Below are positions 20,854 through 21,884 of a DNA stretch of 64,000 bases, in pieces. Each line of letters starts with the position of its first letter. Position 1 is the first letter of the stretch. Below the pieces are notes generated by a model, which did no database searches, was not told where the DNA came from, and was given only the letters and a program-made list of their open reading frames with translations. The position numbers and the translations under genes are program-made. The DNA is from Escherichia phage vB_EcoM_LMP25: sequence record MK482688.1. One strand, written 5' to 3'.

Positions 20854-21441
20854 ATGAAACTGCTAAATATCAAAATCACTGGTACTCGTCCTTTCTTGAG
20901 CCATAACGATACGCTGTCAGACCCATTAAACCCCCTGACAAAATATCACAAGTCTCTGTCCAGTAAACGTAAAAAGACTGACGAAGACTATGCGCTCTTA
21001 GCAGAAAGCCAACTGGTAACTTCTTGCTACTACGATGAGCAGCTAGGTTTTGTTATGAACGGTGAGATGATTGAGGCTTGTATCAAGTCTGGTGCAAAAC
21101 TCAATAAACTTGGTAAGGTAATTGACCGAGCCATTATGCTGACAGATGTAGTCTTCCCAATGACTATCAAGAACTGTCCAGCAAACCCACAAGAACTTGC
21201 TAAGAATCCAGACTTTATCTATGCTAAGTCTGTTAAGATTGGTACAGCACGAGTTATGAGCTACCGTCCAATCTTCCGTGACTGGTCTGTAGAGTTCGGT
21301 TTGATGTTCGATGAAGAGCAAATCACCAAAGAAGAACTCTTGATGGTTCTGGAAAATGCTGGTAACCTTTGTGGTGTAGGTGATTGGCGTCCACGCTTTG
21401 GTCGTTTTTCTGTAGAAGTTATTTCAGAAGGTAACGTTTAA
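20854..21441 (+). CDS. Hypothetical protein (first gene of the repeat-flanked cassette)
   Basis: ORF 20839..21441; start preferred at the ATG at 20854 (GGAG RBS about 10 nt upstream). No recognisable motif. Confidence 0.45.
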
Positions 21442-21443
21442 TT

Positions 21444-21884
21444 ATGAATACAAAAGCATTAGCAGCAAAGTTTAGTTACGGTGACACTGTATCACATTCT
21501 GAGATGGATACCTTCTTAGGTATTGTGAAGCCAACTTATCAAGGTGACATTGTTAAGTACGAAGATGAAATGAAGGCTTATGCACTTACACGACTAAACC
21601 GACTTGAGAAGTTTATTGAAAAGCTTCTTAAAGAAGAGAAGATTTATCTGGTTGCTTCAATGGGTGTTGGTTATCGTGTTGTTGAACCTAAGCATCAAGC
21701 AACTATTGCAAAACGTAAAATGTCTGGTAAGATTGGTCGAGCTTTAAAGCAAGCTACTCAAGCGATTGAGAATGTGAACACTATGGCACTTAGTCACCAA
21801 GAACGTTCACGACTGATTGAACAGCAAAATCACTTAGCTGCTATGAAAGCTAATATTAACAAGCAACGCAGAAAACCTTTCTAA
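21444..21884 (+). CDS. Hypothetical protein (second cassette gene; basic C-terminus)
   Basis: 146-aa ORF immediately after the previous gene; lysine/arginine-rich C-terminal helix. Confidence 0.45.
   Translation: MNTKALAAKFSYGDTVSHSEMDTFLGIVKPTYQGDIVKYEDEMKAYALTRLNRLEKFIEKLLKEEKIYLVASMGVGYRVVEPKHQATIAKRKMSGKIGRALKQATQAIENVNTMALSHQERSRLIEQQNHLAAMKANINKQRRKPF

Follow-up and report, generated by a model that had tools for sequence, protein, structure and literature searches.

The stretch of DNA considered here, which we call the window, comprises 64,000 nucleotides (nt) of Escherichia phage vB_EcoM_LMP25 (MK482688.1), a Felixounavirus of the wV8-like kind. Between its DNA ligase gene and a homologue of gp93 lies a cassette of two genes (open reading frames (ORFs) 20854-21441 and 21444-21884, only 2 nt apart), which are the counterparts of wV8 gp95 and gp94. 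The genes are flanked by four homologous repeat units of ~125-150 nt, two upstream (~20495-20782) and two downstream (~21908-22165), each made up of a ~40-nt imperfect palindrome, 9-15 GGY-NN pentamers and a conserved tail of ~36 nt (Table 1). A preliminary description of this DNA, made from its letters alone, had seen a tightly coupled gene pair of unknown and possibly new function, with a promoter of its own, a structured leader, a TTCG-tetraloop terminator and a second repeat array. The promoter, the coupling and the terminator are all present; the second array does lie downstream of the terminator, but it is composed of two guide RNAs.

We are in little doubt that this locus holds a type II VIPR (Viral Interference Programmable Repeat) system that is complete and belongs to the SUSP1 clade. 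Its kind is already known: VIPR was published in 2026, the locus is near-identical to the published model, and a protein 98% identical to the product of the first gene has a solved structure, so the function is neither new nor unknown. In the preprint (bioRxiv 10.64898/2026.04.26.720920), VIPR is described as a phage-encoded minimal RAMP protein (Vipr) with an accessory gene (vap) and guide RNAs, called vrRNAs, that consist of 9-16 YNNGG repeats and a 3' tail with a pseudoknot, the model being Escherichia phage SUSP1. The NN dinucleotides pair with DNA, and one target base is skipped per repeat. In SUSP1, the vrRNAs are separate RNAs of ~100 nt that co-purify with Vipr, and the ribonucleoprotein (RNP) represses transcription; the natural targets of the SUSP1 clade converge on a satellite with phage-like tape-measure and baseplate proteins (10.64898/2026.04.26.720920).

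Table 1. Features of the vipr-vap1 locus in the window, and orphan guide RNAs in two relatives (positions of the relatives are those of their own locus or record; MFE, minimum free energy)
Feature	Position	Strand	Description
Promoter, sigma-70 type	20441-20468	+	TTGACA-16-TATACT; 11/12 matches, best in region
Hairpin 1 (type a)	20497-20541	+	19 bp, 5 G·U pairs; MFE -20.0 kcal/mol, z -5.6; minus strand -9.7
vrRNA1	20546-20646	+	13 clear GGY/NN repeats (20546-20610), tail A (20611-20646)
Hairpin 2 (type b)	20645-20686	+	17 bp, 3 G·U pairs
vrRNA2	20684-20779	+	12 GGY/NN repeats (20684-20743), pseudoknot tail B (20744-20779)
Hairpin 3 (type c)	20778-20822	+	16 bp, 3 G·U pairs, z -3.1; follows vrRNA2 and precedes the vipr ribosome-binding site
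vipr	20854-21441	+	195-aa stand-alone RAMP (Cas7/Csm3-like) protein
vap1	21444-21884	+	146-aa accessory protein; predicted winged-helix-like topology, then long helical hairpin
Intrinsic-terminator-like hairpin	21896-21921	+	TTCG loop; AGCCTC-TTCG-GAGGCT at 21896-21911, then CCTTTTT
Hairpin 4 (type b)	21910-21953	+	
vrRNA3	21949-22033	+	10 GGY/NN repeats (21949-21998), pseudoknot tail C (21999-22033)
Hairpin 5 (type a)	22032-22076	+	19 bp, 6 G·U pairs
vrRNA4	22071-22161	+	11 GGY/NN repeats (22071-22125), pseudoknot tail D (22126-22161)
Orphan vrRNA, FO1a (L040)	2066-2195		
Orphan vrRNA, Felix O1 AF320576.1 (L049+L050)	57753-57802		

The first gene, vipr, encodes a protein identical at 191 of 195 positions (numbered from the ATG start; a GTG at 20839 opens the longest ORF) to chain 36pp_D of PDB, the 'SUSP1 Vipr protein', from which it differs only by N18A, P119Q, V190I and I191M. 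It is also 97.9% identical to the SUSP2 protein. Structures determined by cryo-electron microscopy (cryo-EM) are reported with their contact residues in a companion preprint (10.64898/2026.04.26.720927). All residues named there that can be placed in the alignment (H17, K33, E71, M72, R138, C173, D177, W178, R179) are identical in the window protein and in 36pp_D, including those that bind GGY or contact the target (H17, K33, R138, D177, W178, R179). A pocket residue which the same text gives as 'T175' is a valine in both sequences (C173-G174-V175-G176-D177), a minor inconsistency in the preprint. The wider Vipr family comprises 520 matches, typically of ~190 amino acids (aa) and 38-50% identity, from metagenomic and actinobacterial phages, and has an invariant C-terminal motif. 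The preliminary description had found no recognisable motifs in either protein and had recommended profile and structure searches. Its statement is correct as far as profiles go, as neither protein has a match in Pfam and the PHROGs families into which they fall (4652 and 5926) are both of unknown function, but Vipr is recognisable by its RAMP fold.

A Cas7/Csm3 fold next to a repeat-associated RNA with a structured handle would also be expected from a degenerate or miniature CRISPR-Cas system (type III/IV-like), or from an RNA anti-CRISPR decoy titrating host Cas7. Both are very improbable here. Repeat analysis of the locus detected tracts with a period of 5 nt, not 6, and no array of repeats and unique spacers; nor does the locus hold other cas genes, the two adjacent ORFs that were scanned with Pfam being the ligase gene and a hypothetical protein, neither with Cas domains (neighbours beyond these two are named only in related phage records). 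Vipr is placed outside Cas5/6/7 in the VIPR preprint (10.64898/2026.04.26.720920), and the targets described below fit a gapped NNx code, not contiguous spacers.

Within the window, GGTNN-periodic tracts are found only at the cassette and only on the + strand (23 matches vs 0.03 expected from shuffles). Among 49 vrRNA units (39 unique guides) from 11 phages, entropy is 0.85, 0.15 and 0.51 bits at the GGY positions and 1.84 and 1.89 bits at the NN positions: among close relatives, GGY is conserved and NN is hypervariable. The phages carry 4 to 5 guides each, arranged 1+4, 2+2 or 2+3 around the genes. The guide of vrRNA1, which has two additional degenerate units starting at 20536, is identical to vr1 of Salmonella phage BPS15Q2. 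The tails are of four sequence types, each able to form the same H-type pseudoknot. In an alignment of ten distinct tails from the 11 phages, 9 of the 12 pairs have changed on both sides, and the paired fraction of cells is 90.8%; sliding the partner by 1-3 columns lowers it to 26-41%. An Rfam scan of the locus returned chance-level matches only, and no description of the repeats came up in the text searches made of the genome papers on Felix O1 and UAB_Phi87. The repeats are not the terminal repeat of the genome either, since the 608-bp terminal repeats of UAB_Phi87 start near the homologue of wV8 gp055, far from gp94/95.

These observations bear on a second alternative, in which the repeats are sites in double-stranded DNA (replication-origin iterons, or a partition site or centromere) bound by both proteins. 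Several features would suit such sites: the repeats stand on both flanks of the genes, the locus lies among replication genes (ligase, polymerase), Vap1 is predicted to have a winged-helix-like topology, and the GenBank record of KhF3 labels one repeat 'possible binding site of StbAB'. However, the GGY tracts are confined to the + strand, the pseudoknot covaries, and the palindromes form hairpins that need 3-6 G·U pairs and are far less stable as RNA of the opposite strand. Moreover, NN is hypervariable between near-identical phages, unlike in iterons, and Vipr is a RAMP RNA-binder near-identical to a protein solved in complex with such RNA. We thus give DNA sites hardly any chance.

A third alternative follows the preliminary description, which had interpreted the ~380 nt in front of the genes as a structured leader. 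The upstream repeats would then act in cis, as an attenuator or riboregulator of a two-gene moron with an unknown function directed at the host. The order of parts is indeed that of a regulated module (promoter, 378 nt of structured RNA, two coupled genes, terminator), and the cassette is absent from Felix O1. But units of the identical kind lie downstream of the terminator, others are found in phages without any vipr or vap to regulate, and, read with one specific spacing, the variable dinucleotides match a foreign element. In SUSP1, such units are separate ~100-nt RNAs bound by the protein (10.64898/2026.04.26.720920). What was taken for a cis-regulatory leader consists instead of two guide RNAs and three hairpins, and a leader is highly unlikely, if perhaps marginally less so than the DNA sites.

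A type II VIPR system should aim its guides at a competing mobile element. We converted the guides to NNx patterns under the published 1-nt-skip rule, and scanned candidate loci locally with skips of 0-3. In IMG/VR, the vr1 pattern (24 specified bases) is matched exactly at a single place, on a provirus-like 22-kb contig of an isolate genome, and the vr4 pattern (18 specified bases) matches four similar isolate-genome contigs and one metagenomic contig. The exact vr2 pattern has zero matches in IMG/VR, its target in the local scan carrying 2 mismatches. The exact vr3 pattern has 17, mostly metagenomic, a number compatible with chance for 18 AT-rich specified bases. The best scores with a skip of 1 are 28/30 for vr1, 22/24 for vr2, 17/20 for vr3 and 21/22 for vr4. 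The best-scoring targets of all four guides fall in one satellite family, on the same strand within a locus, and for vr1, vr2 and vr4 matches of at least 80% NN identity to satellite loci are obtained with a skip of 1 only. Of 200 shuffled versions of each guide, 0, 1, 16 and 0 (vr1 to vr4) score 80% or more against the 34.6-kb reference locus, so that vr3 taken alone is weak. With a skip of 1, no self-target of at least 80% exists in the window. The self-matches above 80% with a skip of 3 are the guide genes themselves, and vr3 also has two matches of 16/20, with skips of 0 and 3.

The targets of vr1 and vr2 lie in the tape-measure gene of the satellite (17687-17730 and 18206-18240 of locus L033), where codon positions 1-2 are paired and the wobble base is skipped. 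The best target of vr3 precedes the satellite baseplate gene by 43-71 nt, and that of vr4 lies in an ORF for a hypothetical protein of 128 aa in four satellite variants (L028, L030, L031 and L032). DNA similar to the target region (tape-measure and baseplate genes) is present in 479 of 5426 complete E. coli genomes, in the chromosome. In NZ_AP045169.1 (strain JNEC-KY173; L033), the element, of ~11 kb (locus positions ~14.1-25.2 kb), lies within a split DUF72 gene and encodes a serine recombinase, a 'phage baseplate protein', a 'tape measure protein', small hypothetical proteins, a helix-turn-helix protein and a Dam methylase; it adjoins a separate prophage at the same site. The satellite loci examined contain no Vipr homologue and no vrRNA tracts of their own. 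The satellite baseplate protein is 81% identical to the window protein encoded at 35044-35817 (- strand), and the satellite tape-measure protein 29% identical to that encoded at 36402-38066 (- strand); for SUSP1, the corresponding identities are 72% and 26% (Fig. S14 of the preprint 10.64898/2026.04.26.720920). As two genes of the satellite, for tape-measure and baseplate proteins, have homologues in the phage itself, VIPR appears as a phage weapon against a phage parasite. The role in host interaction proposed earlier thus gives way to a predicted action on a competing satellite element.

The product of the second gene, vap1, has 99.3% identity to SUSP2 ALH47199 and shares a 90% cluster with phiSUSP1 ALH47068. 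Its AF2 structure model (pLDDT 95.2) predicts a winged-helix-like topology followed by a long helical hairpin. An exhaustive search delineated a Vap1 family of 234 representative clusters, with proteins of ~150-180 aa, and a Pfam search of 43 Vap1 relatives returned no match. In three distant contigs (L004, L005 and L007), a gene for 166-182 aa lies directly 3' of a Vipr homologue, and all three downstream genes share a GxGYR/GYR motif. The gene matches Vap1 by phmmer in L004 and L005; that of L007 has no phmmer match to Vap1 and is linked to it by position and the GYR motif only. The vipr-vap pairing also occurs in several contigs and in the consecutive Gordonia locus tags QM662_08530 and QM662_08535. 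At the distant Vipr loci, GGY/NN tracts with a 5-nt period and 9-16 units lie on the strand of the genes, and the linkage of genes and repeats is therefore conserved far beyond the window phage. The preliminary description had proposed to look for such co-occurrence across phages, with clear homology to known structural or replication proteins and no linkage elsewhere counting against it; vipr and vap are linked to repeats in distant phages too.

From these elements, the following mechanism can be proposed. The early promoter at 20441 would transcribe vrRNA1, vrRNA2, vipr and vap1, vrRNA3 and vrRNA4 coming after the terminator. Vipr would polymerise along the repeat tract with one protomer per pentamer, GGY being buried and NN exposed, and the filament would bind double-stranded DNA by reading NN-x-NN-x..., one base being skipped each time. 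Binding would repress transcription, an effect that Vap1 would enhance, and the four guides would be aimed at the ~11 kb satellite-like element of E. coli chromosomes. Expression of the vrRNAs, RNP formation, the skip rule, repression and the effect of Vap1 are carried over from the SUSP1 experiments, and are expected here by analogy.

Several points weigh against this interpretation. Expression, processing and repression are extrapolated from SUSP1, where the array is 1+3, not 2+2, and both VIPR sources are preprints that are not peer-reviewed. The terminator-like hairpin separates vap1 from vrRNA3 and vrRNA4, and no good promoter follows it; these two guides may be transcribed by read-through or from an unrecognised promoter. 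The vr3 target (17/20) is equalled by 8% of shuffled guides, and vr3 also has two 16/20 matches in the window under other skips, and one in L032 with a skip of 3. The skip of vr4 falls on codon position 2, not on the wobble base. Finally, the winged-helix assignment of Vap1 comes without any significant structural match.

The palindromes of the repeat units bracket every vrRNA with hairpins. As + strand RNA, the five hairpins have 16-19 bp with 3-6 G·U pairs, an MFE of -10.7 to -20.0 kcal/mol and z of -2.5 to -5.6. Their stems are of three types, and their loops are similar. Folded as RNA of the opposite strand, the five palindromic boxes reach no more than -6.7 to -9.7 kcal/mol. Hairpin 4 has as its 5' arm the T-run of the terminator-like hairpin (21896-21953 region). 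The words RNase, precursor and stem-loop are absent from the searchable text of both VIPR preprints, in which we came across no mention of these hairpins. We regard the inter-guide hairpins as candidate processing signals, for example sites of host RNase III; being direct repeats, they may also serve as recombination substrates for the loss or gain of vipr-vap.

Guide RNAs also persist in relatives without Vipr. Nine short-form loci, which lack the two genes, carry 1-3 vrRNAs each, with intact tails and 13 unique guides in all, and at GGY and NN their entropies follow the pattern seen in Vipr-positive phages. Neither Vipr (best E 0.36) nor Vap1 is present in the complete Felix O1 genome, where the ligase control was recovered at 89% identity and exactly one GGY/NN tract occurs. 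Two orphan guides match the satellite (20/20 in UAB_Phi87 and 22/24 in typing phage 15), and an exact-pattern scan of IMG/VR with the Felix O1 orphan guide gave no match. We did not find orphan vrRNAs of Vipr-less relatives in the searchable text of the VIPR preprints. A tentative scenario, to which we would give somewhat less than an even chance, is that the hairpins act as maturation signals or recombination substrates, and that orphan guides use Vipr in trans, supplied by co-infecting relatives, or act as decoys. Some orphan guides are identical to guides of Vipr-positive phages, so recent deletion between flanking repeats is a live alternative, in which the orphan guides are mere deletion scars.

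Short and long forms of the locus can be compared across the relatives of the window phage. Over 20280-22260, identity is 100% with Escherichia phages vB_EcoM_LMP34 and LMP33 and 90-95% with ~180 Felixounavirus/Ounavirinae records. The cassette has the DNA ligase gene on one side and, on the other, a run of small early genes leading to the frd and td genes. In FO1a and Felix O1, the ligase gene and the gp93 homologue (there gp86) are separated by a gap of 282 nt with no vipr or vap in it; the same short-form intergenic region occurs in 112 of 230 related phage records, Felix O1 among them. By tblastn, Vipr is present at 90% identity or more in 117 Ounavirinae records (129 records matched in all), and its product is called 'hypothetical protein' in all ~30 phage records among the tblastn matches listed. 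Being absent from about half of the relatives, the cassette is accessory and insulated. The earlier description as a self-contained, moron-like module is borne out in this respect, as the cassette has its own promoter and terminator and lies between conserved genes that are adjacent in FO1a and Felix O1. Two of the records with a Felixounavirus locus at 92-99% identity are labelled otherwise (GU169904.1, Staphylococcus phage SA1, and MG065668.1, Campylobacter phage A126), and are probably mislabelled or mixed assemblies.

The interval between the ligase gene and the VIPR promoter holds a hydrophobic ORF of 48 aa (20287-20433; PHROG 22006), which some relatives have (a 147-nt coding sequence in UAB_Phi87) and for which others carry no annotation. 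The promoter itself is kept in FO1a, where it lies upstream of the orphan vrRNA. The next promoter beyond the cassette, TTGACA-17-TATTTT at 22179-22207, shares with it 14 nt around the -35 box (20433-20446 vs 22171-22184). Its -35 box is surrounded by a 19-nt inverted repeat (arms 22160-22178 and 22188-22206, 89% complementary), which looks like an operator layout.

VIPR is a newly described way for RNA to read DNA, in which the code is gapped and the protein is Cas7-like and of 20 kDa; CRISPR effectors have been proposed to descend from it. The window adds no new kind of system, but an independent computational replication on a different phage, covering the fold, the conserved linkage of genes and repeats, the covarying pseudoknot and a single satellite family on which all four guides converge. 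Small questions about the maturation and sharing of guides arise from the inter-guide hairpins and from the orphan guides.

The closest known system is the SUSP1 type II VIPR (PDB 36pp), with which the window locus shares a 98% identical Vipr, the genomic site (ligase gene on one flank, gp93 homologue on the other), the GGY/NN repeats, the types of tail pseudoknot and the targeted satellite family. It differs in its array (two guides upstream and two downstream vs 1+3), in the NN sequences of its guides and in its host genome (Felixounavirus vs Suspvirus). The Cas7 backbones of class 1 CRISPR-Cas systems (Csm3, Cmr4, Csf2) place one protomer per RNA period, flip bases periodically and have a structured handle at the guide end. 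In VIPR, however, the period is 5 nt, three bases are sequestered, and pairing is gapped (2 paired, 1 skipped). VIPR has no spacer acquisition, CRISPR array, Cas6, Cas5, large subunit or nuclease; it is encoded by phages, with guides that are fixed in the genome.

Two further systems offer more distant analogies. TRAP is an oligomeric protein that reads 11 G/UAG triplets spaced by 2-3 nt in single-stranded RNA; a short conserved triplet with a 5-nt period is thus common to TRAP and VIPR, although the folds are unrelated. TRAP regulates its own mRNA in cis, and its spacer bases are not used to read DNA. The Vibrio phage ICP1 carries a full type I-F CRISPR-Cas system with adaptation and DNA degradation, with guides against the chromosomal satellite PLE. 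ICP1 and the window phage are thus alike in being lytic phages with an RNA-guided system against a parasitising chromosomal satellite, but VIPR consists of two genes, has no adaptation genes in its locus and, in published assays, acts by binding and repression.
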